Positions 9,362 through 55,008 of a DNA stretch of 64,000 bases are shown in pieces. The DNA comes from Candidatus Magasanikiibacteriota bacterium. Its GTDB lineage: Bacteria; Patescibacteriota; Patescibacteriia; Magasanikbacterales; UBA922. Where the stretch lies: assembly GCA_003510435.1 (NCBI GenBank), contig DOMK01000020.1:59523-123522 (forward strand). Direction: 5' to 3'. The notes beneath the pieces were generated by a model. It worked only from the letters and a program-made list of their open reading frames with translations. It searched no databases and was not told the origin of the DNA. Position 1 is the first letter of the stretch; every line of letters starts with the position of its first letter. A program made the position numbers and the translations under genes.

Positions 9362-9484
9362 CATGTCGGCTGTCGTTAATGGAGAACTCAGGGCGCACGT
9401 GGACATGCTCGCGGCACAGAACGAGGGACTGCGGTTTCTCATGAGCCAGTTTCACTGGCTGACCGCGTTCGAGCTCTGGCTCGC
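9362..9484 (+). CDS. GC-rich 40-aa ORF with a strong Shine-Dalgarno site (candidate foreign small gene)
   Basis: AGGAGG lies 6 nt upstream of the ATG. It encodes 'MSAVVNGELRAHVDMLAAQNEGLRFLMSQFHWLTAFELWLADR', and the codon third positions are GC-rich, unlike the host. Confidence 0.3.
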
Positions 9485-9611
9485 CGACCGGTGAGTCAGA
9501 AGCAGCGCGAGCTGCACGTGCGGGAGGGCTTCGCTACCCAACCCACGTATTATTTATTTTATAAAAAGTAAATAGTACGTGTGTGGGATGTTATCTTTGG
9601 AGGGAAAATGA

Positions 9612-9800
9612 ATGGGTAAACAGGAATGGGTGTGCCCGAGCTGTGGTTGCGATGTCAAGAAGAAGAATACTCGGGTTTGTCCCGAGTGTGGAGCTGGTCG
9701 GTACGACAGAAAGCGCATACCTCAGATAGGTGTGTCGCAGGCGATCACGAGCTTTTTCGAGATTGCCTATCCTCCTGAAGCTAGGAGGAAGAAGTCGTGA
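9612..9800 (+). CDS. small zinc-ribbon protein (CPSCG...CPECG) in a GC-rich segment
   Basis: A GGAGGG Shine-Dalgarno site is present. Two CxxC pairs are present and codon usage is GC-rich. Confidence 0.4.
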   Translation: MGKQEWVCPSCGCDVKKKNTRVCPECGAGRYDRKRIPQIGVSQAITSFFEIAYPPEARRKKS

Positions 9801-9960: not shown

Positions 9961-9966
9961 TATATT

Positions 9967-10145
9967 TGATCCTGATAGCTGTGGCAGTTCATATCATATC
10001 CGCAAATATTCATACTTGGGAGATCTATATTTCTCCAGCCTGTGGGCTAGAGGTGCGATCACCCACCTGATTTTCAGGGGTATGGATATGTCCTGCCTCG
10101 GGCTGATGGATCCAAAAAGACAATCTTAAACAGGTTGTTTTTTTA
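9967..10145 (+). ncRNA. candidate small RNA (about 180 nt) between the orphan promoter and a T-run
   Basis: A consensus promoter lies upstream. The segment is mixed-GC with several short hairpins (gtggg...cccac, cctga ttt tcagg) and ends in gttgttttttt. Confidence 0.3.
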
Positions 10146-12963: not shown

Positions 12964-13209
12964 ATGTCAGAAATAAAACGTAAAAAAGGTGAATCCTTTG
13001 AAGCTTTTATGCGCCGAATCAAACGGCGTTGGCAACAGTCCGGTAAGTTGTTACAGGCTCGCAAAATTCAATATGTCCAGCCTACCTTGAGCAAGAACAT
13101 GCAAAAGAAACATACCGTCAAAAAGTTGCAAATGGTTTCAAAAATGAATTATCTGCGTAAAATTGGTCGTTTACCAGAAGAAGAAGAAAAATTCACTAAA
13201 AGAAAATAA
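12964..13209 (+). CDS. rpsU: 30S ribosomal protein S21
   Basis: GGAGG Shine-Dalgarno site upstream. The protein is basic and matches the S21 pattern 'ESFEAFMRRIKRRWQQSGKL'. Confidence 0.75.
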   Translation: MSEIKRKKGESFEAFMRRIKRRWQQSGKLLQARKIQYVQPTLSKNMQKKHTVKKLQMVSKMNYLRKIGRLPEEEEKFTKRK

Positions 13210-36891: not shown

Positions 36892-38124
36892 ATGCCTCAA
36901 GTAAAACCAGAAATTGAAACCTTTGCAAAAATTAAAGTGATTGGTGTTGGCGGATCAGGTGGGGCGGCTGTTGACCGCATGGTAAGGACCGGTATCAGAG
37001 GGGTGGATTTTGTAGTTATGAATACTGATGTGCAAGCTCTTCATCATAATAGCGCTGCTCATAAAATTCATATTGGTAAAACAGTTACTCGGGGTTTGGG
37101 AGCAGGCATGGACCCAGAATTGGGTAAACGCAGTGCCGAAGAAGCGCAAAATGAAATTAGAGAAGCCGTGGCTGGCAGTGATATGGTTTTTCTTACTTGT
37201 GGTTTGGGTGGTGGTACTGGCTCTGGGGCTACGCCAGTGATTGCAGAAATTGCGCGGGAAGCTGGAGCTTTGACTGTCGCCGTTGTGACCAAGCCGTTTT
37301 CTTTTGAAGGTCCACAAAGAAAAAATATTGCTGACAAGGCTCATGAAGCTTTGATTCGCAATGTTGATACTATTATTACAATTCCCAATGACCGAGTTTT
37401 ACAAATTATTGATAAGAAAACCAGTCTATTAGATGCTTTTAAAATTGTGGATGATGTTTTGCGTCAAGGAGTTCAAGGGATTTCAGAAATGATTACTGTT
37501 CCAGGATTAATCAATGTGGACTTTGCTGATGTAAAAGCTATTATGCGCGATACTGGTTCGGCTCTTATGGGAATTGGACAAGCTGGTGGAGAAAATAGAG
37601 CAGTTGAGGCCGCTAAGTTGGCTATTTCTAGTCCATTATTAGATGTATCAATTGACGGCGCCAGAGGAATTTTATTTACTGTTACAGGTGGTAAAGATTT
37701 GGGCATGCAAGAAGTGGCCGAAGCTGCCAAGGTTATTACTGCTTCAGCCGATGATAATGCCAAAGTAATTTTTGGAGCAGTAATAGATGATGCTTTGGGA
37801 GAAGAGATTAGAATTACAGTTGTAGCGACTGGTTTTGATGATGATAATCGTAGTACTCTAACCGCTTCGGAAGATGAACCAAGAGCATTTTTTGGTTCAG
37901 GAAGAAATTTTTATGGCAATACTTTTTTAAAGAAAAAAGTTGAGGAAGAAAAGGAAGAAGAACCAGAAGTAAAAAGACCAGTTTTTATTAGTAAATCAGT
38001 TTCTACCAATATTAATAATGCTTTAGAAGATATTCAAAAGCCAATAATAAAAAAAGAAGAACCAAAAGATGAAGATGAAGATTTGGAAATTCCAGCTTTT
38101 ATTCGAAAGAAAATGGGTATGTAG
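36892..38124 (+). CDS. ftsZ: cell division protein FtsZ
   Basis: It has 'IGVGGSGGAAV' and the tubulin signature 'GLGGGTGSGATPVIAEIARE'. Confidence 0.95.
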   Translation: MPQVKPEIETFAKIKVIGVGGSGGAAVDRMVRTGIRGVDFVVMNTDVQALHHNSAAHKIHIGKTVTRGLGAGMDPELGKRSAEEAQNEIREAVAGSDMVFLTCGLGGGTGSGATPVIAEIAREAGALTVAVVTKPFSFEGPQRKNIADKAHEALIRNVDTIITIPNDRVLQIIDKKTSLLDAFKIVDDVLRQGVQGISEMITVPGLINVDFADVKAIMRDTGSALMGIGQAGGENRAVEAAKLAISSPLLDVSIDGARGILFTVTGGKDLGMQEVAEAAKVITASADDNAKVIFGAVIDDALGEEIRITVVATGFDDDNRSTLTASEDEPRAFFGSGRNFYGNTFLKKKVEEEKEEEPEVKRPVFISKSVSTNINNALEDIQKPIIKKEEPKDEDEDLEIPAFIRKKMGM

Positions 38125-38162
38125 TTACACTTGAGCACCTAAACACTTTAGCACTTGAACAC

Positions 38163-38189
38163 AAACCCTTAAACAGGGTTTGTTTTTTT
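38163..38189 (+). terminator. rho-independent terminator after ftsZ (aaaccct taaac agggttt gttttttt)
   Basis: A 7-bp stem is followed by a T-run. Confidence 0.7.
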
Positions 38190-41389: not shown

Positions 41390-41491
41390 ATTTAAGAGTA
41401 AAATGTTATAATATTTATATTATTCTTTATTCCCCGCCTGCAACGCTATCGCTTGCATTGCGGGCAGGCTTACTCCTTATTCCTTTTTATT

Positions 41492-42931
41492 ATGCAAAAA
41501 CGCACGAAAATTGTTTGTACGATTGGTCCGGCTTGTGAGTCAGAAGTTACTCTAACAAAAATGATCAAAGCCGGTATGAATGTGGCTCGGCTTAATTTTT
41601 CTCATGGCATTTGGGAGTGGCATTTGGCTACCTTAAAAAAAATTAGAAAAATTTCTAAAAAACTTAATGAACCAATTGCGATTATTCAAGATTTGCAAGG
41701 ACCAAAAATTCGCGTTGGAGCTTTACCAGAAAAAGGGGTTATTTTAAAAGAAGGAAAGAAAATTTGTTTTGACACTAGTCTGTCTACTTATAAAAATGAA
41801 ACCATTCCAATTGATTACAAAGATTTGCATTTGTATACAAAAAAAGGTGAACGAATGATGTTGGATGATGGGCGCATGGAAGTTGAAATATCAAAAGTTG
41901 CCGGTAATGTTATTACTGCCGAAGTAGTAGTTGGTGGCATACTTACTTCGCACAAGGGGATTAATTTACCAGATTCCAAGTTGGCGATTCGGGCTTTGAC
42001 AGATAAAGATAAAGAAGATGCATTATTTGGAGTAAAAAATGAAGTCGACATGATGGCTTTGTCTTTTGTGAGTAGTGCTCAAGATGTTTTTGATTTAAGG
42101 TTTTTAATAGAGGAGTACGAAAGAAAATTTAAAATAAAAAGAAGTCAACCAATTAAGATTATTGTAAAGATTGAACGTTATCAAGCAGTAAAAAATATTA
42201 AAGAAATATTAGACGTCGCTGATGCTGTGATGGTAGCAAGAGGGGATTTGGGAGTAGAGATTCCACCGCAAAATGTTCCTTTAGTCCAGAAGCAATTGAT
42301 TGACGAATGTTTATTAATTGCTAAACCGGTTATAGTAGCCACGCAAATGCTTGATTCCATGCAAAATAACCCTCGGCCAACCAGAGCTGAAGTGTCTGAT
42401 GTGGCTAACGCAGTCGTGGATCATACTGACGCTGTCATGCTTTCCAATGAAACTGCGACTGGTAAGTATCCAGTTGAGACTGTGGCCATGATGACAAGTA
42501 TTATTCAAGAAACAGAAAAGTCTGTTTATGATGATTTGGAAGTAATGCAATATGTAAAGAAAAAGAAAAAAATTGATGAAGTGGTAAGTGAGATGTCCAG
42601 ACTTCTGGCCGAAAAAGTTGATGCCAAAATAATTTTAGCGGCTTCCATTACTGGTGAAACTGGCAGATTAATTTCTCGTCATCGTCCAGAGCTCCCTATA
42701 GTTGTAGCGACAGACAATGAAAGAACTATGCGCCAGCTCAATTTGTCTTGGGGAGTAAAATCATTTATTTTAAAACCTTGTCGCACAATTGAAGAATTGA
42801 TTGCCAGATCAATGGTCTATGTCAAAAAAGAAAAATTAGCTAAAAAGGGTGATAAAATAATCGTTGTGTCTGGCGAACCAGTAGGTCAAGCCGGACATGT
42901 TAATTTGTTGGAAGTGAGGGAAGTCATTTAG
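41492..42931 (+). CDS. pyk: pyruvate kinase
   Basis: It reads 'TKIVCTIGPA...MNVARLNFSHG' and has 'MVARGDLGVEIP'. Confidence 0.92.
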   Translation: MQKRTKIVCTIGPACESEVTLTKMIKAGMNVARLNFSHGIWEWHLATLKKIRKISKKLNEPIAIIQDLQGPKIRVGALPEKGVILKEGKKICFDTSLSTYKNETIPIDYKDLHLYTKKGERMMLDDGRMEVEISKVAGNVITAEVVVGGILTSHKGINLPDSKLAIRALTDKDKEDALFGVKNEVDMMALSFVSSAQDVFDLRFLIEEYERKFKIKRSQPIKIIVKIERYQAVKNIKEILDVADAVMVARGDLGVEIPPQNVPLVQKQLIDECLLIAKPVIVATQMLDSMQNNPRPTRAEVSDVANAVVDHTDAVMLSNETATGKYPVETVAMMTSIIQETEKSVYDDLEVMQYVKKKKKIDEVVSEMSRLLAEKVDAKIILAASITGETGRLISRHRPELPIVVATDNERTMRQLNLSWGVKSFILKPCRTIEELIARSMVYVKKEKLAKKGDKIIVVSGEPVGQAGHVNLLEVREVI

Positions 42932-43056
42932 GCACATAACACATAACACGAATCATATATCACATACCAACTATGAAATTTGTTATGTGATATTTGTTGT
43001 GTGGTACGTGAAAAAGTGCTATAATATATCTACTTCGTTTTAGGTAAAAAATAGAT

Positions 43057-46000
43057 ATGGAGAGAAAACAAAAAAATATTTTATGGTTTTCTGAGATTGG
43101 AATTACTGATGTGCCACTCGTGGGTGGTAAGAATGCTTCACTCGGAGAAATGTATTCCAAACTAACGCAAAAGGGAATTAGAGTTCCCAATGGTTTTGCT
43201 ATTACTGCTAGTGCTTATTGGTCGTTTTTGAAATTTGCTAAGCTAGAAGACAAAATGAAAAAGGAATTAAAGGGTTTGGATATTTCTAACATGAAAGAAC
43301 TGTCTAGGGTGGGCAAGAGTATTAGAAATTATATTTTGAATTCCCATTTTCCGAAAAGTTTAGAACAAGAAATTATTGTTGAATACAAAAAATTATCTGA
43401 GCTTGCAAAAACCAAAAATATTTCTGTTGCAGTACGTTCATCAGCTACAGCCGAAGATTTACCCGATGCTAGTTTTGCTGGTCAGCAAGAAACTTATCTA
43501 AATGTAAAAGGGGAAGCGGATTTACTTTTGGCTGTAAAAAAATGTATTTCATCACTATTTACTGATCGAGCGATTTCTTATCGTGAGACCAAGGGTTTTG
43601 AACATATGGCTGTGGCTTTGTCTGTCACAGTGCAAGAAATGGTGCGGTCAGATGTTGGTGCGAGTGGAGTTATGTTTACGCTTGATACTGAGTCTGGTTT
43701 CAAAGGTGTCGTTCTGATCAACGCGGCTTATGGCTTGGGTGAATATGTCGTAAAAGGCCGAGTGACACCCGACCAATTTTATGTTTTTAAAGAAGGGGTA
43801 AAACAAGGAAAAAAGGCTATAATTAGCAAAATTTTGGGTAGTAAAGAAGTAAAATTGGTTTATGGTAAGACTGTAGGAACAAAACAGGCCAATGTAAAAC
43901 ATGTTGATAGAAATAAATTTGCCGTTACTCCAGACGAAGTTATTCAATTATCAAAATGGGGTGTGATGATTGAGGAACATTATGGCAAGTCTCAAGATAT
44001 TGAATGGGCGAAAGATGGTATTACTGGCAAATTATATATTGTTCAGGCCAGACCAGAAACAGTCAAAGCCAGGTCAAGTCACTCAGTGATTGAAAGATAC
44101 GAACTCAAGAAAAAAGGAAAATTATTATTGCGTGGTACTGCAGTTGGTCAGAAAATTGGCGCAGGCAAAGCCAGAGTAATTGAAAATCCTAAACAAATGA
44201 AATCTTTTAAAAAAGGCGAAATTTTAGTAACACGCATTACTGATCCAGACTGGGAACCAATCATGCGCATTGCTTCGGCCATTATTACTGAACAAGGTGG
44301 TAAAACAAGTCACGCCGCGATTGTGTCGCGCGAATTGGGTGTGCCGTGTATTGTTGGTGCCAGTGGAGCGAGAAAAATGTTAAAAACTGGTAAACCAATT
44401 ACTGTTAGCTGTGCCGAAGGTGATGAGGGTTTTGTCTATTCTGGAGTTTTGCCATTTGAAGTCAAGAAAACAGAAATAAAAGATGTAGCCAAAACCAAAA
44501 CTAAGATTATGATGAATGTGGGTGATCCTGACAATGCCTTTGCTTTATCATTTTTACCCAATGACGGGATTGGTCTCGCGCGAGAAGAATTTATTTTTTC
44601 AAATTTTATTCGGATTCATCCTTTGGCTTTAATAAATTATGATAAACTGAAAGATAAAAAAGCCAAAAAAATAATTGCGGACATGACTCATGGTTACAAA
44701 AAGAAATCAGATTATTGTGTAGATAAGTTGGCCGAAGGGATTGCTAGAATTGCCGTTGCATCATACAAAAATGATGTGATTGTTCGTTTGTCAGATTTCA
44801 AAACTAATGAATATGCTACACTGATTGGTGGTAAAGAATTTGAACCAAAAGAAGAAAACCCAATGATTGGTTGGCGGGGAGCGAGTCGGTATTATTCCAA
44901 AGAATATAAAGCGGGCTTTAAACTTGAATGTGAAGCTTTGAAAAAAGTGCGCAATGAATGGGGGCTAACTAATGTCATTGTCATGGTGCCGTTTTGTCGC
45001 ACACCAGAAGAAGGAGAACAAGTAATCAAAACAATGGAAGAATTTGGTCTCAAACGCGGGGAAAATGGTCTACAGGTCTATGTTATGTGTGAAATTCCAT
45101 CCAATGTTATATTGGCCGAAGAATTTGCCAAAATTTTTGATGGCTTCAGTATTGGTTCCAATGATCTTACCCAATTAACTCTAGGAGTAGATCGTGATTC
45201 AGCTTTAGTAGCTCATATTTATAATGAAAAAAATAAAGCCGTGACAACTTTGATTCGTGATGTGATTCGTGTGGCTCACAAACACAAAAGAAAAGTAGGT
45301 ATTTGTGGCCAAGCACCGAGTGACTATCCAGAATTCGCGGAAATGTTAGTGCGTGAGGGAATTGATAGTATTTCACTCAATCCTGATACAGTAATATCAA
45401 CGCGAGAACGGATTGCCTATGTAGAAAAAACTTTGGGCAAAAAAGGTAGAAAAACTAGTCTTAAATTTTTGAGTCTAGTGGCCGTGTTTGGAATTTTGGG
45501 TGCTAGTTTAATCAGTTTAGGTGCTGGTTGTACCAAGACCACGATTGAAAAAACTATGCCAACTGTCCAAAAAAATGAATTGAGTCCAGCTCAGTTGCGC
45601 TTAAAAATTTTGGAAAATCAAAAACAAGCTCTGACCCAAAGTTTAAAAATTAACACCTTTGCTAATTTTGAAATGAAATATCCCGCCACTTGGCAAGTGG
45701 AAGAATGGACTGGTGGCGTCACTCTGCGTAATTTGGCTACGGGTGAATACGTTAGCATTTTTAAACAATTGGTTTCTCCCCCAGTAAAAGAAGTGAGTTC
45801 TTCCACCACTGTGTCTGGTATTCCGGTATTGATTTATTCCGATACGCCCAGTATTACAAGTTCTATGATGTATCTAATGGCAGAAATTCCTTATCAGGAT
45901 GAAATTATTCAGTTTGATACCAATGCTCTTGGTTTGGGAATTGAAATGATGGAAACAATGAAATTTAATAAACCAGAAGTTGGTTTGCCAGATAAGACCA

Positions 46001-46149
46001 CTAGTCATTGGGATGTTCGTGAGCGCAAAGTCTGTGTCCAAATGATTACTTACGCCAGACAAAACAAAGATAGTGATTGCCAGATGTTTTCTACCCCTTG
46101 TGAAGTCCCAGATAATTGGCAAGTATGTGATCGGGGTACTATAAATTAA
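43057..46149 (+). CDS. ppsA: phosphoenolpyruvate synthase (pyruvate, water dikinase) fused in frame to a C-terminal extension of about 240 aa carrying a signal-peptide/lipobox-like hydrophobic segment
   Basis: The N-terminal 'VPLVGGKNASLGEMY' and PEP-utilising domain are present. After about 790 aa comes 'GKKGRKTSLKFLSLVAVFGILGASLISLGAGC', then an unknown domain. Confidence 0.85.
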   Translation: MERKQKNILWFSEIGITDVPLVGGKNASLGEMYSKLTQKGIRVPNGFAITASAYWSFLKFAKLEDKMKKELKGLDISNMKELSRVGKSIRNYILNSHFPKSLEQEIIVEYKKLSELAKTKNISVAVRSSATAEDLPDASFAGQQETYLNVKGEADLLLAVKKCISSLFTDRAISYRETKGFEHMAVALSVTVQEMVRSDVGASGVMFTLDTESGFKGVVLINAAYGLGEYVVKGRVTPDQFYVFKEGVKQGKKAIISKILGSKEVKLVYGKTVGTKQANVKHVDRNKFAVTPDEVIQLSKWGVMIEEHYGKSQDIEWAKDGITGKLYIVQARPETVKARSSHSVIERYELKKKGKLLLRGTAVGQKIGAGKARVIENPKQMKSFKKGEILVTRITDPDWEPIMRIASAIITEQGGKTSHAAIVSRELGVPCIVGASGARKMLKTGKPITVSCAEGDEGFVYSGVLPFEVKKTEIKDVAKTKTKIMMNVGDPDNAFALSFLPNDGIGLAREEFIFSNFIRIHPLALINYDKLKDKKAKKIIADMTHGYKKKSDYCVDKLAEGIARIAVASYKNDVIVRLSDFKTNEYATLIGGKEFEPKEENPMIGWRGASRYYSKEYKAGFKLECEALKKVRNEWGLTNVIVMVPFCRTPEEGEQVIKTMEEFGLKRGENGLQVYVMCEIPSNVILAEEFAKIFDGFSIGSNDLTQLTLGVDRDSALVAHIYNEKNKAVTTLIRDVIRVAHKHKRKVGICGQAPSDYPEFAEMLVREGIDSISLNPDTVISTRERIAYVEKTLGKKGRKTSLKFLSLVAVFGILGASLISLGAGCTKTTIEKTMPTVQKNELSPAQLRLKILENQKQALTQSLKINTFANFEMKYPATWQVEEWTGGVTLRNLATGEYVSIFKQLVSPPVKEVSSSTTVSGIPVLIYSDTPSITSSMMYLMAEIPYQDEIIQFDTNALGLGIEMMETMKFNKPEVGLPDKTTSHWDVRERKVCVQMITYARQNKDSDCQMFSTPCEVPDNWQVCDRGTIN

Positions 46150-46171
46150 TAGTAATATTATTTAAAATCAT

Positions 46172-46200
46172 AAAACTCCTTGGTAAAAAGGAGTTTTATT
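46172..46200. terminator. bidirectional terminator (aaaactcctt ggtaaa aaggagtttt)
   Basis: A 10-bp stem is followed by a T-run. Confidence 0.65.
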
Positions 46201-46248
46201 ATAGATAAAATTGACCAGATGAAGATTTTTTAGTATTATTATATAAGT

Positions 46249-46995
46249 ATGAATAAAAGAAATAAAATTATTATATTAATTTTAGTGCTAGGCTTTATTA
46301 GTATTTATCTCAACCGAGCTTATGCTTATTTTTATAATCATATTGGCAAGGTCAATTTGGCGAGCCAGTTTTTTGATTATGAAGAGCCATTGTTAATTGG
46401 AGAGACTAAAGGAACAACCATAGATTATGTCGCTTTGGGTGATAGTCTTACTTATGGTGTGGGTGCGAGCAAAATAGAAAATAGCTTTCCCTATATTTTG
46501 GCTAATGATTTATTTCTTGATGCGGACAAGTCTTTAAAATTGTATAATCTTGGTATTCCTGGTGCCAAGATACAAGATGTGATTGATTATCAATTGGACA
46601 AAACAATCGCTCTAAACCCAGATTATATTACTGTATTTATTGGAATAAATGATATTCATGGTTTAGTTGGACCACAAGTTTTTGCCAGTGACTTAGCTTA
46701 TTTATTAGAGCGTCTAACAAAAGAAACCGAAGCCAAAATTGTTATAATAAATTTGCCATATTTAGGAAGTAAAGATTTGGTTTTATTTCCATATAATTAT
46801 ATTTTAGATTGGCGGACGGTGGAGTATAACAAATATATTGAAAAAGTGTCTAAGTTTTATGGTTTAGAATTGGTTGATTTGTATAGTTATACCAAGAGAG
46901 AATTAAAAACAAATCAGTCTTTTTATTCAGCCGATTTATTTCACCCGTCAGATGTTGGCTATAAATTGTGGGCAGATTACATTTATGCAAATTGA
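46249..46995 (+). CDS. SGNH/GDSL hydrolase family protein, membrane-anchored
   Basis: It has an N-terminal TM helix, 'YVALGDSLTYGVG' (GDS block I) and 'DLFHPSDVGY' (DxxH block V). Confidence 0.8.
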   Translation: MNKRNKIIILILVLGFISIYLNRAYAYFYNHIGKVNLASQFFDYEEPLLIGETKGTTIDYVALGDSLTYGVGASKIENSFPYILANDLFLDADKSLKLYNLGIPGAKIQDVIDYQLDKTIALNPDYITVFIGINDIHGLVGPQVFASDLAYLLERLTKETEAKIVIINLPYLGSKDLVLFPYNYILDWRTVEYNKYIEKVSKFYGLELVDLYSYTKRELKTNQSFYSADLFHPSDVGYKLWADYIYAN

Positions 46996-48103
46996 AATTT
47001 TAAATCCAATCTTACAAACCCAGATTTTTTCATTGATTTTTGTCATGGCTATTTTAATTTCTATTAGAAAGAAACCAGATAAAGAATTTTTTCCGATTTC
47101 TCTTACCAATGAATTGAAAGGGGTGGCAATTTTGGCTGTGGTTTTTTCTCATATTGGTTATTTTTTGGCGACTGACACAAGATTTTTATTTCCTTTATCA
47201 ATTTTGGCTGGAGTCGGGGTGGATATGTTTTTATTTTTATCTGGTTATGGTTTAGCCGTGTCAGCTATCAAAAAAACTTTATCGCCAGTCCAATTTTATT
47301 TGAAGCGGGTAATAAAAATTTTTATTCCCATGTGGTTTGTTCTAATTGCCTTTTTTTCTTTGGATTGGTTCATATTACATCAGACTTACCCAATTGCAGA
47401 AGTAGCGCAGAGTTTTATTGGTTTTTTCAAAGAAGCTGATTTATTTGGTGATGTTAATTCGCCTTTGTGGTTTATTACTTTGCTATTATTTTATTATTTA
47501 GTTTTTCCTCTGGTTTTTAAAAAAGATCACCCAATTTTATCCGCCCTGGTATTGTTTTTTGGTGGCTATTTTTTAATTGATTTTAATTTTGAGACAGTGT
47601 GGCGAGTAAATCATTTACATCGTTTACATTTTATGGCTTTTCCTCTAGGTGTAGTTTTTGCCGGTTTAGTAGTCGCACCAAAAGTAAAAAATTATATCCA
47701 AGTGCTAAGGAATTATTTGTCTAATAAAGAATGGTTAGTAGTTTTAAGTAAGTTATTATTAGCTAGCATAGCTTTTGCTGGATTTTTATATTTTGGGATT
47801 AATTCTGGCGTAGGTCAAGAGCCGTGGTTAGAACAGAATATTAAAATTATAACGGTGTTATCAATTGTAATATTATTTTTACTCAAACCGTTCAGTTTAA
47901 GATTTTTTAGTTTGGTTGGGATTTATTCTTACGAGATTTATCTTTTGCATTGGCCAATAATGTATCGGTATGACATCTTTTATGCCTGGCTTCCGGCTGG
48001 GGTAGCGACGGCTTGTTATATTGGTTTGTTTGTTTTACTCGGGTTTGGTTTACAAAAGTTGACTGGTTTAATAACCAAGTATTTGCCTTTTACTAAGGGG
48101 TAA
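46985..48103 (+). CDS. acyltransferase-3 (OatA/OafA-like) family membrane acyltransferase
   Basis: It has 'LKGVAILAVVFSHIGYF' and about 10 TM helices. It overlaps the SGNH gene stop by about 11 nt. Confidence 0.75.
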   Translation: MQIEILNPILQTQIFSLIFVMAILISIRKKPDKEFFPISLTNELKGVAILAVVFSHIGYFLATDTRFLFPLSILAGVGVDMFLFLSGYGLAVSAIKKTLSPVQFYLKRVIKIFIPMWFVLIAFFSLDWFILHQTYPIAEVAQSFIGFFKEADLFGDVNSPLWFITLLLFYYLVFPLVFKKDHPILSALVLFFGGYFLIDFNFETVWRVNHLHRLHFMAFPLGVVFAGLVVAPKVKNYIQVLRNYLSNKEWLVVLSKLLLASIAFAGFLYFGINSGVGQEPWLEQNIKIITVLSIVILFLLKPFSLRFFSLVGIYSYEIYLLHWPIMYRYDIFYAWLPAGVATACYIGLFVLLGFGLQKLTGLITKYLPFTKG

Positions 48104-48418
48104 AATAAAAATAATTAACAGCAGAAATAGCTAATATTAGCTATTTTTTTATTTTTAAACATGTTTAACTATTGACCCCACAGAATGTCATGCCTGGTTC
48201 GCTTCGCTTCACCATGGCTGACATCAGCGGGGCGAGATCAGGTTTTGCATTTTTTTGTCTATTATCATTATTTTGAGTTTTGCCATTATCTGGGGATAAT
48301 AACATTGACAAAGTCCTCGAAATATGGTATTTTTGTATGTTCAAAAAAGTTGGTTGGCAACTAGGTGTTCGTATAAAATGAATACCAAGGTGCCTATCAA
48401 CCCAAAGAAGGAGGTCCC

Positions 48419-48616
48419 ATGAAGGGATTCCTGCTGCGGTTTCTAGCCCTTCTGGCGATGATGTTCGTCGTCAGCGCCTGCGAGTCGGAGACGGGTTACA
48501 CCGTCTGCGAACAGCAGTGCGAGTCCAAGGGCGTGTCGTCCGAGGACTGGGACGAATGCATCGGAGGATGCGAGGCTGAGGCTGAGGTCGAAGCCAAGCG
48601 TTTTTCGGACATGTAG
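48419..48616 (+). CDS. GC-rich small Cys-rich lipoprotein-like peptide (65 aa)
   Basis: A perfect GAAGGAGG Shine-Dalgarno site is present. The signal peptide ends in lipobox 'VVSAC', followed by six further Cys. The GC-rich codon usage is foreign to the host. Confidence 0.45.
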   Translation: MKGFLLRFLALLAMMFVVSACESETGYTVCEQQCESKGVSSEDWDECIGGCEAEAEVEAKRFSDM

Positions 48617-48775
48617 TCCCAGATACGGCACGACAGGCCACATTCCCGTCGACTATTAAGAGAGGTCGACAGCGCTGGGAGCAAACATCTCTTTTCTGAA
48701 GGAGGGCTGGAGTCAATAAGCGCAATTGATTCCGTCCGATTATTATTTCTATTTTAATAGAAGTTATTGAGGAAT

Positions 48776-48810
48776 AAAAACCCCAGGCTTTGTCTGAGGG
48801 TTTTTATTTG
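48776..48810 (+). terminator. rho-independent terminator (aaacccc...gggttttt)
   Basis: A bulged hairpin is followed by a T-run. Confidence 0.55.
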
Positions 48811-48831
48811 AAGCTTGGAAAAACCCTGATA

Positions 48832-48860
48832 TTGACATAATTTGTTAAATCGTGTATTAT
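48832..48860 (+). promoter_or_regulatory. promoter TTGACA, 17 bp, TATTAT
   Basis: The spacing is consensus, about 30 nt upstream of the small basic ORF. Confidence 0.55.
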
Positions 48861-48889
48861 ATTATCACTTATATTTAAACATACTTTAT

Positions 48890-49003
48890 ATGGGAGTTAG
48901 AAAGAGTAATAATCAAAAAGCTAAATTGGAACGAGCTGTTGCCAAGATTAGACGTGACAAAAATAAACTTAAAAGATTGAGAAAAGCTGAGGCAACAAAA
49001 TAA
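48890..49003 (+). CDS. very small highly basic protein (37 aa, MGVRKSNNQKAKLERAVAKIRRDKNKLKRLRKAEATK)
   Basis: It is not in the ORF track because it is under 60 aa. It has its own consensus promoter and lies upstream of tRNA-Asp. Confidence 0.35.
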   Translation: MGVRKSNNQKAKLERAVAKIRRDKNKLKRLRKAEATK

Positions 49004-49060
49004 TCTTGTCAAAATAAATTGATTGTGATAAAATTATTTCGTCCTTTTTAGGACGTTTAC

Positions 49061-49137
49061 GGACTGGTAGTTCAACTGGTTAGAGCACCGCCCTGTCACG
49101 GCGGAAGTTGCGGGTTCGAGTCCCGTCCAGTCCGCCA
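49061..49137 (+). tRNA. tRNA-Asp (anticodon GTC), CCA encoded
   Basis: It has acceptor GGACTGG/CCAGTCC, anticodon loop CTGTCAC, T-loop TTCGAGT and discriminator G plus CCA. Confidence 0.8.
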
Positions 49138-49143
49138 ACAAAA

Positions 49144-49170
49144 ATAGAGCCAAGAGCTCTTTTTTTGTTT
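49144..49170 (+). terminator. terminator after tRNA-Asp (agagc caaga gctct plus T8)
   Basis: A short stem is followed by a T-run. Confidence 0.45.
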
Positions 49171-49411
49171 TGATTTTAGGTATTAGAAATTAGAATAATT
49201 TGATAATAATATAAAAACACACTGATGTGTGTTTAAAAGAGACTACTTGTCGTTATATCGGACTTTTCGGAATTATGATCAGACCCACTAGGTGTTCAGC
49301 GTAGGCATTGGGACCAAAGGAGGGGGTGGTCCCGCCGTACACCGAACACTCAGCAGGCCTTATGTATGCCTCATCTTAGCATGGATAAAATCATTTGTCA
49401 ATATTGGCTTG

Positions 49412-49460
49412 TGGAAAAATAAATCCGCCTCGAGTACTCGGGGCGGATTTTGTGTTTTGG
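49412..49460. terminator. strong bidirectional terminator (14-bp stem aaatccgcctcgag/ctcggggcggattt) ending the infC–rpmI–rplT operon
   Basis: The long GC-containing stem has A/T runs on both sides and lies immediately 3' of rplT on the minus strand. Confidence 0.75.
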
Positions 49461-49490
49461 TGTTTTTGTGCGGAAGTGTTTAGGTGATTA

Positions 49491-49835
49491 TTATTTTACG
49501 AACTCTACGATCTTAGCAAAAACTTTTGGTTCTTTGTCAGCAATTTGGGACAAAACTTTTCTATCTAATAAGATTTGTTTTGTCTTTAGGGCTCCCATGA
49601 ATTTGCTATAGCTTAGATCAAATAATCTGACAGCGGCATTGATTCGAACTTGCCATAAACCACGCATAGTTCTCTTTTTAACGCGACGATCGCGGTAAGC
49701 ATGAGCACCAGCTTTGGTATCAGCAGTTTGAGCCAAGGCAATAAGATTTTTTCTACCAGCTTCAAAACCTTTTACTCTTTTCATTAGTCCTCGACGTCTT
49801 TTTAAGTGTAGGACTCCACGTTTAACTCTAGGCAT
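49491..49835 (-). CDS. rplT: 50S ribosomal protein L20
   Basis: It reads 'MPRVKRGVLHLKRRRGLMKRVKGF...' and is basic. Confidence 0.92.
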   Translation of the reverse strand: MPRVKRGVLHLKRRRGLMKRVKGFEAGRKNLIALAQTADTKAGAHAYRDRRVKKRTMRGLWQVRINAAVRLFDLSYSKFMGALKTKQILLDRKVLSQIADKEPKVFAKIVEFVK

Positions 49836-49857
49836 AAAATTTTTTGTTTATAATTGA

Positions 49858-50064
49858 TTAGAAATTTTTAATCGCGCGACTGATAGTATCTCTCATGGTA
49901 TTGGACATGGTTTTATCAGAGCGTTTATTGCGTCTGGTTTTACCAGTTTCGCGAGAATTAAAATGATCTTGTCCATTGGTGCGTTTGATAAATTTTACAC
50001 CGGAAGAACTTTTCTTTACAGCAAATCTTTTTGCAGTCGCTTTGTGTGTCTTAGCTTTTGGCAT
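49858..50064 (-). CDS. rpmI: 50S ribosomal protein L35
   Basis: It reads 'MPKAKTHKATAKRF...' and is 68 aa. Confidence 0.9.
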   Translation of the reverse strand: MPKAKTHKATAKRFAVKKSSSGVKFIKRTNGQDHFNSRETGKTRRNKRSDKTMSNTMRDTISRAIKNF

Positions 50065-50161
50065 ATAAATAACTTAGATATTTTATAAAGGGATTAACGT
50101 GTTAAAAAGTGGTGAGATTATACCTTAATCTTGGTTTTAAGTCAAGATTTGTCCCTGTTGA

Positions 50162-50710
50162 TTATTTTTTAGCAATAATAGCGGTCACTTTGTTGCCTTG
50201 TTTGGTTGGCTCTTGTTCAGTTCTAATCTCCATTTTTTCCTTTATTAGAGCCAAATATTTCTTCAGAACTTCAAAAGCGAGCTGTGGTTTGGTGTTTTCT
50301 CGGCCTTTTAAAATGATTTCTACTTTTACTTTATCACCGCGATCTAGGAATTTTTCAGATTGCTCTACTCTTATTTCCAAATCGTGCTCACCAATCCGGA
50401 CAGATAGCCTTACGCCCTTAGTTTCAGTCTCATGAGTTTGAACTTTTTGTTTGCGAGCTTCTTTTTCTTTTTGATATTTAAAATGAGAAAAGTCAACTAT
50501 TTTGCAAACTGGTGGAGTGACTGTAGGGTTGATTTCAACCAAATCCATTTCTTTTTCTTCAGCCAAATGCAGAGCTTGTTCCAAAGTCATGACACCGAGA
50601 TTTTCATTATTATCACCAATCACGCGTACTTCTGGTACACGAATTCTATCATTCAGTTGATAGTGGGGGATAAGTGGTTTGTCTGGTCTTTTTTTACGAC
50701 TAATACGCAT
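50162..50710 (-). CDS. infC: translation initiation factor IF-3
   Basis: It reads 'IRVPEVRVIGDNNENLGVM...' and 'DLVEINPTVTPPVCKIVDF', and heads the infC–rpmI–rplT operon. Confidence 0.9.
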   Translation of the reverse strand: MRISRKKRPDKPLIPHYQLNDRIRVPEVRVIGDNNENLGVMTLEQALHLAEEKEMDLVEINPTVTPPVCKIVDFSHFKYQKEKEARKQKVQTHETETKGVRLSVRIGEHDLEIRVEQSEKFLDRGDKVKVEIILKGRENTKPQLAFEVLKKYLALIKEKMEIRTEQEPTKQGNKVTAIIAKK

Positions 50711-50837
50711 AATAAATAGTTATAAAGTTATAATAATGTTTGCGATGCTAATATACTAATTCATACTAATAATACTAATGTCGTATATTTCGTAATTAGT
50801 ATTATTAGTACCATTCGTATATTGGTATCGTGTTTCG

Positions 50838-51237
50838 TGGAGATGCCGGGAATTGAACCCGGGTCTAGGCGGGCTACCCCTACAGTCTACATGTGTAGCT
50901 GATTTGGTATTTCACTCGTGGCTAGAAAATCAGCAAAATAACTACGAGCTGAAGCTTGGATTACTTTCGGAAAAAAATCTCAAGCGAAATTTTTGACCTA
51001 CACTCAATAATTTACACCGCCTAACCCCTATTGAGTATCAGAGGGGCGATGGTAGAAGCACTTAAGCGACTACAGAAGCAAATGTAGGAACACTAAAGGC
51101 AGAAGCCAAAGCATTCTTTACTTTGCTAACAAAGTTTGCATTTATAATTTGTACTTTGGTATTTACGAGGAAAAAGTACAACCTCGACATGCTTGTAAAA
51201 GATAACATGGGTCCACCCATCGAACCCTGTCATCCCC
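50838..51237 (-). ncRNA. ssrA: tmRNA (ssrA)
   Basis: On the minus strand the 5' end reads GGGGAUGACAGGGUUCGAUGGG. The 3' end has the T-arm GGGUUCAAUUCCCGG plus CAUCUCCA pairing with the 5' GGGGAUG. An internal 'CCUCGUAAAU' is followed by a tag ORF ...ALASAFSVPTFASVVA then UAA. It is adjacent to smpB. Confidence 0.8.
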
Positions 51238-51328
51238 TTTATTCACTTAACCACTTTATCACTCAATCACTTCATCACTTTTGGTAAAGTGTTTAGGTGG
51301 TCAAGTGGTCAGGTGAAAGATTGAATTG

Positions 51329-51778
51329 TTAAAGATCTCCTTTTAAGGTTCTTCTCGTTTCTCTTTCAGTATCGCGTTTTTTAATACTTTCTCTTTTGTC
51401 ATACTTCTTTTTACCTTTGGCAAGGCCAATGGCCAATTTGATATGACGGCTCTTATTATACAGGGAAAGAGGAACAATTGTCAAGCCTTTTTCTAGCATT
51501 TTTCCTCTTAAATAAGAGATTTCTTTTACTTTTAAAAGTAGTTTTCGGCTTCTTTCTGGATCATAATTTTCTTCATTACCAGCAAATTTGTATTTTGGGA
51601 TATGGACATTGCTCAAAAGAACACTATCATTGTGAAAATTTACAAAGCCACCTTTTAGGTTCGCACTGCCTTTTCTGACTGATTTTACCTCTGACCCAGT
51701 CAGCACCAAACCAGCCTCAAAGGTCTCAAGGATTTCATAATCAAACTTAGCTTTTTTGTTTTCCGCGTAATAGTCCAT
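51329..51778 (-). CDS. smpB: SsrA-binding protein SmpB
   Basis: It reads 'NKKAKFDYEILETFEAGLVLTGSEVKSVR' and has a basic C-terminal tail. Confidence 0.9.
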   Translation of the reverse strand: MDYYAENKKAKFDYEILETFEAGLVLTGSEVKSVRKGSANLKGGFVNFHNDSVLLSNVHIPKYKFAGNEENYDPERSRKLLLKVKEISYLRGKMLEKGLTIVPLSLYNKSRHIKLAIGLAKGKKKYDKRESIKKRDTERETRRTLKGDL

Positions 51779-51894
51779 ATTTTTGCTTTATTAACATAAT
51801 TAGTGTATAATAAAACGTAGTTTTTTTCAAGTTTATACACTAAAACTTGAATTTAGTCGTTTTGGCTCCAAAGAAAAAATTAAACTTATAAAAT

Positions 51895-52329
51895 ATGTTT
51901 TGGCAAAAAAATAACAAAATTAATTTGGTTTTTGTGGTTTTTGGTATAGTTGCTTTGGGGATAATTTTAGCGACCGCGATTTTACTTATAAAATTATCTA
52001 TTAAAATTAAACAAGTTGACTTGAACAAACCAACTAATATGGTAGGTGTAGAAGATGTTTATCAAAGAGTTTTCCAAATCAAGGCAAACTACCAAAAGGG
52101 GATAGAGGATTTGTTGATTAGTACAACATCCACGACTGATAATAATACGATTTATGAAAATGTAGATAAAGTATTTTTTGCGATTAGAGTTCCTCAAGAG
52201 TTGCGCGAAATACACCTAAATACTCTAATGAATATTTATAAAATAAAAGAAACAAAATTGTCTGATTTAGAAAAAAGAGAAAAAGTTATGGATGAATTAA
52301 ATAAATTGCTTGTAGAAATTAAAAAATAA
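51895..52329 (+). CDS. hypothetical membrane-anchored protein
   Basis: It has an N-terminal TM helix and no motifs. Confidence 0.45.
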   Translation: MFWQKNNKINLVFVVFGIVALGIILATAILLIKLSIKIKQVDLNKPTNMVGVEDVYQRVFQIKANYQKGIEDLLISTTSTTDNNTIYENVDKVFFAIRVPQELREIHLNTLMNIYKIKETKLSDLEKREKVMDELNKLLVEIKK

Positions 52330-52331
52330 TT

Positions 52332-53102
52332 ATGCTTTGGAAACAGTATTTAATTAGTTTTTTTGTCGGGTTGATCACCATACCGAGTTTGATTTTGCTG
52401 ATATTTTTTCCTATCCCATGGATATTTTTTTCTACCATAATAGTTTGGATTGGTTTGTCTAGTTTTTTCTATTGGTATCTATATCATACAAAAGAAAATT
52501 TTTTTCTTGATTTTATTTTGCTGATTGCTACCCAGTTGAGTGTGATTGGTTTGATTTTACTAATTGAATGGCCGATTTTAAATTGGTTTTTGATTATTTT
52601 TTGTACGGGATTCATGGCATTGTTTTTTATAAAGTCTCAACTTCAAGAAAATCAGCTCTCTCACGAACAAAAACCAGTACGCAGAATGAAGATGATGCTC
52701 TGGATATTTAATATGTATGCTTTTTTTACTTTGATTTTTGCTTTTGATTTATTTTTTCCTAATTTACCTTTTTGGTTATGGATGTCATTGGCCGGAATTT
52801 TATCAGCTTTTGTGTCGGTTATGATTTGGAGAATGTATTTTGTGATTGAGTATAAAAAAATATTATTATGGGCACTGCTTATGGCCCTTTTAGTTTTGGA
52901 AATGGTGTGGGTCATTAATCTTTTGCCTATGGGGTATTTGATTTTGGGCGCCATGATTACTTGGTTATGGTTTTTATTTCAATTATTTGTCCGTTTTCAT
53001 CTTGCTCCTCAGGGTATAGATTGGAAAAGACAGACTTGGTTTTTATTGAGTAATGTAATTCTATTTTTTATATTTTTATTTTATATTGTTCGTTGGATAT
53101 GA
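52332..53102 (+). CDS. hypothetical polytopic membrane protein
   Basis: It has about 8 hydrophobic helices and no recognisable family. Confidence 0.45.
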   Translation: MLWKQYLISFFVGLITIPSLILLIFFPIPWIFFSTIIVWIGLSSFFYWYLYHTKENFFLDFILLIATQLSVIGLILLIEWPILNWFLIIFCTGFMALFFIKSQLQENQLSHEQKPVRRMKMMLWIFNMYAFFTLIFAFDLFFPNLPFWLWMSLAGILSAFVSVMIWRMYFVIEYKKILLWALLMALLVLEMVWVINLLPMGYLILGAMITWLWFLFQLFVRFHLAPQGIDWKRQTWFLLSNVILFFIFLFYIVRWI

Positions 53103-54187
53103 CCCCAAAAGCTCCTCACCTCCCAAACAAGACCTGTCGCGTAGATACTTATTATCGTTTACAAAATGTTAAGTGGTTGTTGTTGTTTGCTGGTTTAGCT
53201 TTTGTGGCGGGTGTAAGTGCCACCATGATTGTTAACGCCTGGGTTTTGCCACATTATGAATCAATTCAATTTGTCCAGAGTAATGACTTGGACGGAAAAA
53301 GATTAAATAACAATACACCCGATTTACTCGTAAAAAGCCAAGCCGAACAGAGACTAATGAATGTTTATGATAAAAAGAAAAAAGTTGAAGGCCAATATTA
53401 TAATAAAAATTCTTTTGTAGCTCAGTCTGCTGTCGTGAGTTCTGATGGTTGGTGTGTATTGTTTTCTTCAAATTATTTTTTGGGTCAAGAAAAAAATTGG
53501 GAAATAATTGACTATGTGGGTAATAGTTATGTGATAGAAAAAACTGTTTATGACAAAACAAATAAATTATTATTTTTAAAAATTCAAGCCAATGGTTTGC
53601 GAGTTATGTCGTTTGCCAATTGGCAAAATTTTGGTCTAAATACCAATGTTTGGTCAATTGATTTTGGTAATGAATGGAAAAATAATTTAGTGGCAGATTT
53701 TGTACCATTGGCCGATCCAGTAGTTGGCTATTATGCGGACAGACAATATAATTTTGGTTTATTGAATTTAACCACTCCTGGCAGTGTTTTGCTAGATGGC
53801 AATGGCCAGTTATTAGCTTTTGTAAATGTGGGTGGTCAAAATTTACTACCAAGCTGGTTAGTGGAGAGGGGAATTAATTCTATTTTGGAAACTGGCAAAT
53901 TGCAATATTTGGACGTGGGTTGGCAAGGATCCCTAGTTTATGGAGTTTTTGGTAATAATAATTCGCAACCTGAGACTGGTTTGTATATAAATATTTTGGG
54001 TGAGAAGTCAGTTGACTCAGCCGTGCAAATTGGTGATGTGGTTTTGGAAATAGAGAATCAACCAATTGATAAATTTACCTTGGCCGAGCAAATCTGGTTT
54101 GCGCCAAAAGAATTTAAAATAACTATTTGGCGAGATGGTGTTAGACAAGAAGTGTTTGCAAAAAAACATTATATTTTAGCCAAATAA
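53093..54187 (+). CDS. hypothetical membrane-anchored protein with a C-terminal PDZ-like segment
   Basis: It has an N-terminal TM helix. 'GDVVLEIENQPIDKFTLAEQIW...ITIWRDGVRQEVF' resembles a PDZ domain. No protease triad is recognisable. Confidence 0.4.
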   Translation: MDMTPKAPHLPNKTCRVDTYYRLQNVKWLLLFAGLAFVAGVSATMIVNAWVLPHYESIQFVQSNDLDGKRLNNNTPDLLVKSQAEQRLMNVYDKKKKVEGQYYNKNSFVAQSAVVSSDGWCVLFSSNYFLGQEKNWEIIDYVGNSYVIEKTVYDKTNKLLFLKIQANGLRVMSFANWQNFGLNTNVWSIDFGNEWKNNLVADFVPLADPVVGYYADRQYNFGLLNLTTPGSVLLDGNGQLLAFVNVGGQNLLPSWLVERGINSILETGKLQYLDVGWQGSLVYGVFGNNNSQPETGLYINILGEKSVDSAVQIGDVVLEIENQPIDKFTLAEQIWFAPKEFKITIWRDGVRQEVFAKKHYILAK

Positions 54188-54229
54188 TCTGTATATTTTG
54201 CAAAATTGACCTAGTTTTCCTTTTTACCT

Positions 54230-54258
54230 TGACAAAACTGCCATTTTATAGTATAATT
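54230..54258 (+). promoter_or_regulatory. promoter TTGACA, 17 bp, TATAAT
   Basis: The hexamers are consensus, upstream of the 54400 gene. Confidence 0.5.
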
Positions 54259-54399
54259 ATCTGTTTATTCTTGATTGTGATAAATTACAAAATCCTTTCA
54301 AAAAGATGAGAACTGATTATATTTGTCTATAAGATAATAATTTACAATCTTATCCTCACTATTTAAAATTTATAATTTAAAATTTAAAATTAATTTAAT

Positions 54400-55008
54400 A
54401 TGTTTGAAGAAAAAAGAATGTTTCATATTATACAAAAAAATTGGAAATTGATTGGTTTAATCGGTATTATTTTTGCTGGTTTAACAATCCTGATTAGTTT
54501 TTTATTTCATCTACAATATCGCGCTGATGCCCAGGTAATGATTATATCAAAATCACGTTATGGAGTAGATCCATATACCGTGGTAAAATCTGCCGAGCAA
54601 GTTGGTGGAAATTTGGTCCAAGTGGTAAAAAGTAATGATTTTTACAACAAGGTTATTGCTCAGCCTGGATTTAATTTGGACAAAACAATATTTGATAAAT
54701 TATCTGAACAAGACAAGCGAAAATTGTGGCAGAAAAATATTATTGTGTCTGTGGTTTATGGTACTGGGGTTTTGAATGTTAGTGCTTATCATGAAAACAA
54801 GGATCAAGCCAAAGAATATGCTGGCGCTGTGGCCAACACCTTGGTCTCCCAAGCTTGGCAATATGTGGGCGGAGATATTACTCTCAAAGTTATCAATGAT
54901 CCAGTTGTGACTTCTTGGCCAGTCAGGCCAAACCTAGTTGTTAACGCTCTAGTGGCTTTTATTTTTGGCATTTTATTATCAACTATTATTTTTGTTAAAC
55001 GTGGATAA
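54400..55008 (+). CDS. Wzz/polysaccharide co-polymerase-like protein (two TM helices flanking an extracytoplasmic domain)
   Basis: The TM-loop-TM topology and size fit chain-length-determinant proteins. Sequence similarity is only weak. Confidence 0.4.
   Translation: MFEEKRMFHIIQKNWKLIGLIGIIFAGLTILISFLFHLQYRADAQVMIISKSRYGVDPYTVVKSAEQVGGNLVQVVKSNDFYNKVIAQPGFNLDKTIFDKLSEQDKRKLWQKNIIVSVVYGTGVLNVSAYHENKDQAKEYAGAVANTLVSQAWQYVGGDITLKVINDPVVTSWPVRPNLVVNALVAFIFGILLSTIIFVKRG

Follow-up and report, generated by a model that had tools for sequence, protein, structure and literature searches.

A GC-rich orphan lipoprotein gene, probably acquired by horizontal transfer, beside tRNA-Asp in a Magasanikbacteria-like genome

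How does a small gene of GC-rich character come to stand among the housekeeping genes of an AT-rich genome, and is it a working gene there? The question is raised by an open reading frame (ORF) of 65 codons, ORF65, in a 64-kb stretch of contig DOMK01000020.1 from a Candidatus Magasanikiibacteriota bacterium (hereafter the window, to which all coordinates refer unless a related locus is named). The mean GC content of the whole window is 35.5%, and the host is an AT-rich groundwater member of the Patescibacteria. Our reading, which we regard as probable, is that ORF65 is a horizontally acquired orphan gene for a lipoprotein, set as a moron-like stand-alone unit beside tRNA-Asp in a Magasanikbacteria-like bacterium of the candidate phyla radiation (CPR). 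Because Patescibacteria live on tiny genomes and rely on other cells, it is informative which genes they gain and keep. ORF65 provides a clean, reproducibly assembled example; it is an orphan, and in itself it represents no new kind of system.

Composition, reading frame and predicted product

The unusual DNA is a mosaic of 0.65 kb, which lies between the stop codon of an acyltransferase gene (46952..48103) and a small lysine-rich gene (48890..49003). It consists of a hairpin segment with 54% GC (48170-48245), a promoter and leader segment with 32% GC (48246-48394), a compositionally foreign core with 56.5% GC (48395..48725) and an AT-rich spacer. The core, read on the plus strand, contains a Shine-Dalgarno (SD) sequence, ORF65 and about 110 nt of 3' sequence. 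Its 100-nt windows peak at a GC fraction of 0.62-0.63, its flanks have 17-32% GC, and only 5 of the 6367 windows of equal size (331 nt) across the 64 kb are as GC-rich. The initial annotation had assigned about 60% GC to all of 48160-48760; this value is appropriate for 48400-48700, but the segment as a whole is a mosaic. The codon usage gives the same picture. The GC fractions at the first, second and third codon positions of ORF65 are 0.58, 0.41 and 0.79, compared with 0.47, 0.34 and 0.27 in 24 host genes (standard deviation of the third-position value, GC3, 0.04), and the amino-acid usage (Ala, Glu, Cys and Gly) is typical of a GC-rich donor. The three-base periodicity of the frame is significant (chi-square 19.7, p = 5e-5), and the core is therefore taken as present or recent coding DNA of a GC-rich genome in the ORF65 frame, and not as a product of chance. 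The earlier claim that base composition and codon usage are foreign to the surrounding genome is thus confirmed, and the SD sequence is foreign as well.

ORF65 (48419..48616, plus strand) looks like a real lipoprotein gene in having an SD, codon periodicity and a lipobox, and the SD sequence GAAGGAGG (48407..48414, plus strand) lies 4 nt before its ATG. The N-terminus, MKGFLLRFLALLAMMFVVSA followed by C, fits the lipobox expression of the PROSITE PS51257 type, with K2, R7, the hydrophobic stretch LLAMMF and VV-S-A-C21. This rule requires Lys or Arg in residues 1-7, an uncharged hydrophobic core, the motif [LIVMFWSTAG]2-[LIVMFYSTAGCQ]-[AGS]-C, and the Cys at 15-35. Signal peptide and lipobox (FVVSA followed by C21) are encoded by 48419-48481, in which the codon for Cys21 occupies 48479-48481. 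The mature part would have 45 residues, a pI of 4.05 and a net charge of -10, and its cysteines are spaced C30-x3-C34-x12-C47-x3-C51, which is a twin CX3C pattern. As first annotated, then, this is a 65-aa ORF with an SD site, a lipoprotein-type signal and a Cys-rich mature part.

When the structure was predicted by AlphaFold2 without an alignment, the signal helix was followed by helices at residues 29-36 and 41-63, with pLDDT values of 82-90 over residues 31-60, and the helix-loop-helix of this model would place both CX3C motifs together. A Foldseek search of the model against the PDB gave no significant match (E-values about 7-9), and the best-shaped of these non-significant matches were the plant CX3C alpha-hairpinins VBP-8 and Jug r 2 leader. 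Twin-CX3C hairpins such as alpha-hairpinins (vicilin-buried peptides) and small Tim proteins share with ORF65 the cysteine spacing on two antiparallel helices, which in ORF65 are predicted. They differ in that there is no sequence homology, and in that ORF65 is bacterial and predicted to be lipid-anchored, with putative disulfides. If the gene is expressed, the pre-lipoprotein would be exported via Sec, lipidated and cleaved at Cys21, and the strongly acidic peptide of 45 residues would remain tethered to the membrane on its outer face, where it would adopt a two-helix hairpin fold that two disulfides presumably hold together. By analogy with moron lipoproteins, it most likely serves at the surface in an accessory role, such as exclusion or the interaction with phages or partner cells.

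Judged from sequence patterns, the core is part of a stand-alone unit in the order host-type promoter, structured 5' untranslated region (UTR), SD, ORF65, structured 3'UTR and terminator, in which promoter and terminator are consensus pattern matches only. The promoter-like site is of the sigma-70 type (TTGACA-17-TATTTT, 48305..48333, plus strand). It agrees with the consensus at 10 of 12 positions, lies in AT-rich (32% GC), host-like DNA, and is built like the promoters of host genes in the neighbourhood (48832-48860 and 9933-9961). A long 5' leader hairpin (48349..48401, plus strand) straddles the boundary between AT-rich and GC-rich composition, and the predicted intrinsic terminator AAUAAAAACCCCAGG...CUGAGGGUUUUUAUU (48773..48812, plus strand) closes the unit and forms its right boundary. 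The left host boundary is an AT-rich hairpin with a T-run, the predicted terminator of the acyltransferase gene, built from the inverted repeat AAATAGCTAAT/ATTAGCTATTT (48127..48157, plus strand). Further inside, the palindrome that had been placed at 48185-48230 does exist, but it is better described as a terminator-like GC-rich hairpin followed by TTTTGCATTTTTTT (48192..48256, stem 48192-48242, plus strand; 54% GC; -31.7 kcal/mol, z-score (z) -2.5), with a match of the terminator scan at 48227-48248 and no visible recombination site. This hairpin looks like a second terminator-like element after the acyltransferase gene, and it is perhaps a relic of an older foreign GC-rich insert.

The peptide has no credible homologue in a word-indexed set of 5.8 billion proteins, which returned only ORF65 itself, or among 1.84 billion cluster representatives searched in full by HMMER. 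Scans of JGI metagenome contigs and IMG/VR with the back-translated peptide again returned only ORF65, and blastn and tblastn against plasmids and 50,697 phage records gave no match. Pfam, NCBIfam, PHROGs, PADLOC and PDB sequences provided nothing beyond sub-threshold signal-peptide similarity. No relative carrying ORF65 was present in any collection searched, and the peptide is also unrelated to the other foreign lipoproteins described below (ORF211 of the related locus L113 and a 520-aa protein with a thrombospondin type 3 repeat, TSP3). ORF65 was skipped by gene callers in several contigs, and such under-calling of small ORFs may hide its relatives, although the DNA-level scans argue against close ones. 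Two weak HMMER hits were rejected: P0002 was a repeat-summed match to 'SETGYT', and P0003 was a Cys/Gly-rich beta-type repeat in a surface protein of 1209 aa without a CX3C pair.

Junctions, related loci and route of entry

A sharp switch of composition is the classic symptom of an assembly chimera or of a contaminant read joined to a CPR contig, and mis-assembly had been named as a concern when the segment was first described. We therefore compared independent assemblies. One Logan contig from SRR5855242 is 100% identical to 47840-48898, and another of 9.3 kb from SRR6487867 is identical to 41440-50769. Two longer contigs, one of 112 kb from ENA (SRR2177986) and one of 53 kb from JGI (3300009031), match 42890-55003 without a difference, and a 2-kb contig from SRR2177951 covers 48070-50098 with a single mismatch, in rplT. 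At least five independent assemblies, from different samples and assemblers, thus contain both junctions, with 100% identity across them in independent runs and pipelines (Logan, ENA/MEGAHIT and JGI), so that the insert is not mis-assembled and the chance of a chimera is negligible. The insert is identical in every sample that contains the organism. Some other contigs end at or near the locus: one from SRR2177956 (L090) starts exactly at 48805, the end of the insert terminator, with one single-nucleotide polymorphism and about 65% identity beyond 49784, and contigs L084 and L085 break inside tRNA-Asp, at 49103 and 49099. These breakpoints could reflect strain heterogeneity or recombination at the locus.

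The genes around the insert are PPDK, a GDSL lipase, the acyltransferase, tRNA-Asp, L20/L35/IF3, tmRNA and SmpB. The L20 protein is 75-81% identical to that of Magasanikbacteria-type Patescibacteria, and the acyltransferase is about 50% identical to proteins of other CPR metagenome-assembled genomes. Since the closest genomes are only 78-81% identical in L20, the comparison with empty sites is one of gene order only. The order kept in relatives is SmpB-tmRNA-IF3-L35-L20, a small RNA (sRNA) gene, K37 and tRNA-Asp, followed at some distance by PPDK. K37 is the lysine-rich ORF of 37 aa (MGVRKSNNQKAKLERAVAKIRRDKNKLKRLRKAEATK, 48890..49003, plus strand) directly upstream of tRNA-Asp (49061-49137, plus strand); it matches no family, and together with tRNA-Asp it forms a conserved host module beside the insert. 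Of 14 related JGI loci, 13 have the pair. The K37-tRNA-Asp module of the window is inverted relative to L20 (rplT) and the sRNA gene, an orientation seen in no relative, and the insert lies on the 5' side of the module, at the K37-proximal edge of the inversion.

Related loci differ in what stands beside this module. In L091 and L105, sRNA, K37 and tRNA-Asp follow each other without a GC-rich ORF insert, and short GC-rich scraps without ORFs are found beside tRNA-Asp in L105 as well as at 48170-48245 in the window. L098, L099 and L100 have a block of 70% GC between L20 and the sRNA gene, and right after tRNA-Asp they carry a promoter, an AT-rich leader hairpin, GGAGG and a GC-rich lipobox ORF of 100 aa (ORF100). 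In L113, a block of 67% GC after tRNA-Asp encodes an acidic, Cys-rich lipoprotein of 211 aa (ORF211) with a GC3 of 0.79. The cargo proteins of the window, L098 and L113 are mutually unrelated. The L098 protein has more than 200 homologues, some of them annotated as Acidimicrobiia, Rhodothermales, Poribacteria or Uhrbacteria; one is part of a 5.2-Mb contig, in a locus with 62% GC, and the protein matches phrog_30702 (E = 9e-14). Because some of these homologues occur in GC-rich bacteria, transfer of a small lipoprotein gene into this spot is demonstrated for at least one case. Because relatives either lack the insert or carry different GC-rich lipoprotein genes, we consider the site a hot spot at which foreign genes for surface proteins accumulate. 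Small GC-rich genes for Cys-rich proteins of the cell surface, lipid-anchored or secreted, have entered this core locus next to tRNA-Asp more than once, in three independent lineages. Recurrent gains of this kind point to horizontal transfer as an adaptive way of remodelling the surface.

In the history that we propose, a short piece of DNA from a GC-rich donor would have brought one small gene with its own SD and 3' hairpins, and would have inserted next to the conserved sRNA-K37-tRNA-Asp module of the AT-rich host, at an intergenic position whose content varies. Illegitimate recombination after DNA uptake is our default guess for the insertion, as no recombination signature was seen. The borders of the insert show only AT-rich low-complexity matches as inverted or direct repeats, and a blastn-short comparison of tRNA-Asp with 2-3 kb of flank on either side found no tRNA-derived att repeat of at least 10 nt in the window, L098 or L113. 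No recombinase or integrase lies within about 6 kb, according to Pfam annotations of the genes called in 42890-55003 and 45231-73171. The GC-rich islands of the window have no mutual similarity, and the idea that they are copies of one element was rejected on this ground. The term cassette used in the initial annotation consequently applies only loosely, to an insert that is self-contained; a defined mobile unit, with flanking repeats, attC, a tRNA att repeat, a nearby recombinase or similarity among the islands, is not what was found. As a separate observation, the closest relative by K37, L105, has at 1618-1655 a 9-nt repeat of the tRNA-Asp 3' end GCCCGCCAC directly after a 17-nt GC palindrome, possibly an att-like scar that an earlier integration or excision left behind.

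Capture of an integron-type, or otherwise single attC-bearing, cassette at a secondary site was weighed in the same context and appears very improbable. Integron cassettes resemble the foreign core of about 330 bp, which looks like a promoterless single ORF with its own SD and 3' hairpins downstream of a resident-type promoter, and several unrelated small GC-rich ORFs occur in the same genome. However, the locus has no attC consensus, no intI and no array. A scan with the attC expression RYYYAAC...GTTRRRY gave no pair near either GC-rich cassette region and none within 48 kb of the insert; the two hits of the window, against 15.6 expected, both fall at 61-123. No common consensus emerges from the 3' hairpins of the various islands, the integrase search described above was negative, and the cassettes are not arrayed.

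Other known systems offer partial likenesses. A moron is defined by its own promoter and factor-independent terminator and by deviant GC content (PMC3594210). The ORF65 unit shares with phage morons such as HK97 gene 15 and the lambda bor lipoprotein gene the single gene, the predicted promoter and terminator of its own, the deviant GC content and the absence from between the same neighbours in relatives, and the cargo of morons is often a small membrane protein or lipoprotein. It differs in standing in a chromosomal housekeeping locus (the rplT operon and tRNA-Asp) with no phage genes nearby. Islets and islands linked to tRNA genes likewise combine a position beside a tRNA gene, content that varies among relatives and a foreign composition, but the present insert has only about 0.65 kb and lacks both an integrase and a directly repeated tRNA 3' end.

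Messenger folding, translation signals and the adjacent small RNA

Is ORF65 read as a protein gene in this host, or does the insert act mainly as RNA? The transcript is predicted to be strongly folded. The leader (48338-48440) folds at -39.9 kcal/mol (z -5.4), none of 200 shuffles being as stable, and the SD sequence and start codon fall inside a small hairpin, in which the SD pairs with codons 4-6. The region 48395-48810 folds at -180 kcal/mol, compared with -132±6 for shuffles (z -7.8), and includes a hairpin of 110 nt that covers the 3' half of ORF65, the stop codon and the start of the 3'UTR (48530..48639, plus strand; -60.2 kcal/mol, z -6.0). The opposite strand of 48530-48639 folds more weakly (-44.4 kcal/mol, z -3.6), and ORF65 itself is more stable than all of 300 versions with shuffled synonymous codons (z -4.3). 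The other small GC-rich ORFs of the window are likewise structured (z -3.1 and -6.6). Less structure was found for host genes (-0.3 to -2.3), for ORF100 of L098 (-0.8), for its homologue in the 62% GC locus L101 (-0.9) and for ORF211 of L113 (about -1.9). Horizontal gain of a lipoprotein gene does not predict such a range for ORF65 (z -3.4 to -7.8), given that the bona fide transferred ORF100 stands at -0.8.

This excess of structure keeps alive a reading centred on RNA, in which the insert would be a dual-function structured RNA or a module like a type I toxin, in which folding of the mRNA would silence a small membrane peptide, with its GC content due in part to selection for stems at synonymous sites and not to foreign origin. 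Messenger RNAs of hok-like type I toxins, as well as entericidins, encode small peptides with an N-terminal hydrophobic helix, and they are hard to detect by homology. ORF65 shares with them this helix, as in Hok-type toxins, and, by prediction, the highly structured mRNA and the occlusion of its SD, and the stronger fold on the sense strand, the synonymous-codon test and the equally structured GC-rich ORFs of the window, compared with host genes and ORF100, agree with selection on RNA. In contrast to type I toxins, however, ORF65 combines a canonical lipobox with a long extracytoplasmic part, acidic, rich in Cys and soluble beyond residue 21, and no gene for an antisense RNA was found: the minus strand of 48160-48810 shows no promoter for an antisense or antitoxin RNA. 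A search of 48160-48810 with Rfam 15 covariance models gave no match at gathering score and only chance-level ones at E ≤ 10. Moreover, GC is raised at the first and second codon positions too, the amino-acid usage is that of a GC-rich donor, and no second copy or homologous RNA was available for covariation. On balance, we consider the RNA-centred reading unlikely.

Several further points weigh, like the folding, against ORF65 as a horizontally acquired and working lipoprotein gene. First, its foreign origin is read from base composition only, because no homologue of the peptide and no donor was found. Second, a stop-free frame of 65 codons has a chance of roughly 12% in DNA of 59% GC, and there are three antisense ORFs of 62-84 aa. 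Third, promoter-like sites are common in AT-rich DNA, with 10 found against 3.3 expected. Fourth, none of 38 host proteins of the window has a lipobox, and the genes lgt and lspA (Lgt and LspA) were not seen in the 64-kb window or the retrieved flanks. Fifth, the insert shows no population variation, and hence it offers no measure of selection on ORF65. Finally, the host appears not to use SD sequences, an SD-like motif (even GAGG at -18..-3) being present in only 1 of 38 host genes, and the SD of ORF65 may not help its translation.

The same points can be explained if the insert is a donor gene fragment that was dead on arrival, that is, uptake debris not expressed in this host, with promoter, frame and terminator that are fortuitous or belong to the neighbours. 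We regard this as less likely. It agrees with the lack of homologues and of a possible selection test, with the fair chance of a stop-free frame in GC-rich DNA, with antisense ORFs as long as ORF65 itself, with the over-abundance of promoter-like sites in the region, with host genes that use neither SD nor lipobox, and with the GC-rich scraps without ORFs nearby (48170-48245, and beside tRNA-Asp in L105). On the other hand, a GC3 of 0.79 without amelioration means that the insert either came very recently or is under constraint. The unit lacks no part, with a promoter at a sensible distance, a leader hairpin across the boundary of composition and a dedicated terminator. The insert is fixed and identical in all samples with the organism, and relatives have analogous units of promoter, leader, SD and lipoprotein gene.

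The use of SD sequences deserves separate attention. All three small GC-rich ORFs of the window have SD sequences of the GGAGG type (Fisher p = 4e-4 compared with host genes). The sole AT-rich host gene with a strong SD (AGGAGGTG), at 12964..13209 on the plus strand, encodes a bS21-like protein; the assignment is based on BLASTP against E. coli S21 (E = 5e-8) and on TIGR00030, whose match (E = 4e-4) is below the cutoff. Ribosomes of Bacteroidia are SD-blind because bS21 sequesters the anti-SD, and rpsU is autoregulated (PMC7797042, PMC9976891). By analogy, a similar SD-blind arrangement may apply to this CPR lineage. If SD-blindness holds here, the SD of ORF65 is a relic of the donor, and its effect in the host is uncertain. 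In this respect, ORF65 is a useful handle on how foreign SD-led mRNAs are translated where the host makes no use of SD, and on the strong folding of such inserts.

Next to the insert, a conserved hairpin RNA of about 90 nt is predicted on the minus strand at 49268-49362, between rplT and K37/tRNA-Asp, with a TTGACA...TAAGAT promoter and a U-tail. This sRNA also occurs in L091 (7470-7560), in L098 (8020-8108) and in L105-L117, and it has no Rfam match. Its apical loop CCCCCUCCUU does not vary among 11 lineages, and compensatory changes affect 12 of the 27 base pairs. The loop resembles the anti-SD of 16S rRNA and is complementary to AAGGAGG(G), which corresponds to the SD of ORF65 and to a 3'UTR site at 48699-48706. 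In addition, the 11-nt sequence ACTAGGTGTTC of the ORF65 leader hairpin (48360-48370) recurs on the same strand in the sRNA gene (49287-49297), with a chance expectation of about 0.1; the ORF65 mRNA and the minus-strand sRNA are thus complementary over 11-12 nt, a match that is suggestive only. When the sRNA was scanned for duplexes against all 60-nt windows of the 64-kb stretch, GC-rich targets dominated, and the ORF65 initiation region was not prominent. It is conceivable, though we think it quite doubtful, that ORF65 belongs to a class of foreign, SD-led, structured mini-genes in a host whose own genes start translation without SD, and that the translation of these mini-genes is gated by ribosomes with a free anti-SD, by the sRNA, or by both. 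If true, CPR bacteria would thereby possess a built-in layer of control over genes gained by horizontal transfer.

Other GC-rich islands and elements of the window

The window has further GC-rich islands. The region 9300-9880 is presumably the first GC-rich cassette region, given that ORF65 had been described as lying in the second, and it holds two SD-led ORFs, each with GC-rich hairpins downstream: 9363..9494 (43 aa) and 9612..9800 (62 aa, with a zinc ribbon of the form CPxCG...CPECG). Their RNAs are highly structured (z -3.1 and -6.6/-8.5), and a candidate 6S RNA and tRNA-Val follow immediately downstream of the region. The candidate 6S RNA (9966-10116, plus strand) is a sub-threshold match (38.9 bits compared with a gathering score of 46.4, E = 8e-6), and it stands behind a perfect TTGACA-17-TATAAT promoter (9933-9961). 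A block of about 53% GC at 7990-8200 has no codon periodicity in any frame and no Rfam match. The block is probably not a gene but a structured RNA as yet unclassified.

At the end of the window, an island of 3.2 kb with 62% GC begins at 63540, occupies 63540-64000 and continues in L119 (18400-21600). It encodes a secreted protein of 352 aa ending in ...LLFRF, like the C-terminus of an outer-membrane protein, and the 520-aa lipoprotein, rich in Cys and Asp, whose thrombospondin type 3 repeat matches Pfam TSP_3 (E = 2e-7), and these features suggest a diderm GC-rich donor. Finally, clusters of CACTTGAGCACT-like direct and inverted repeats occur in intergenic DNA at 3595-3645, 38121-38163 and 51237-51307, one of them immediately upstream of the tmRNA gene, and they may represent a regulatory or promoter-associated motif.

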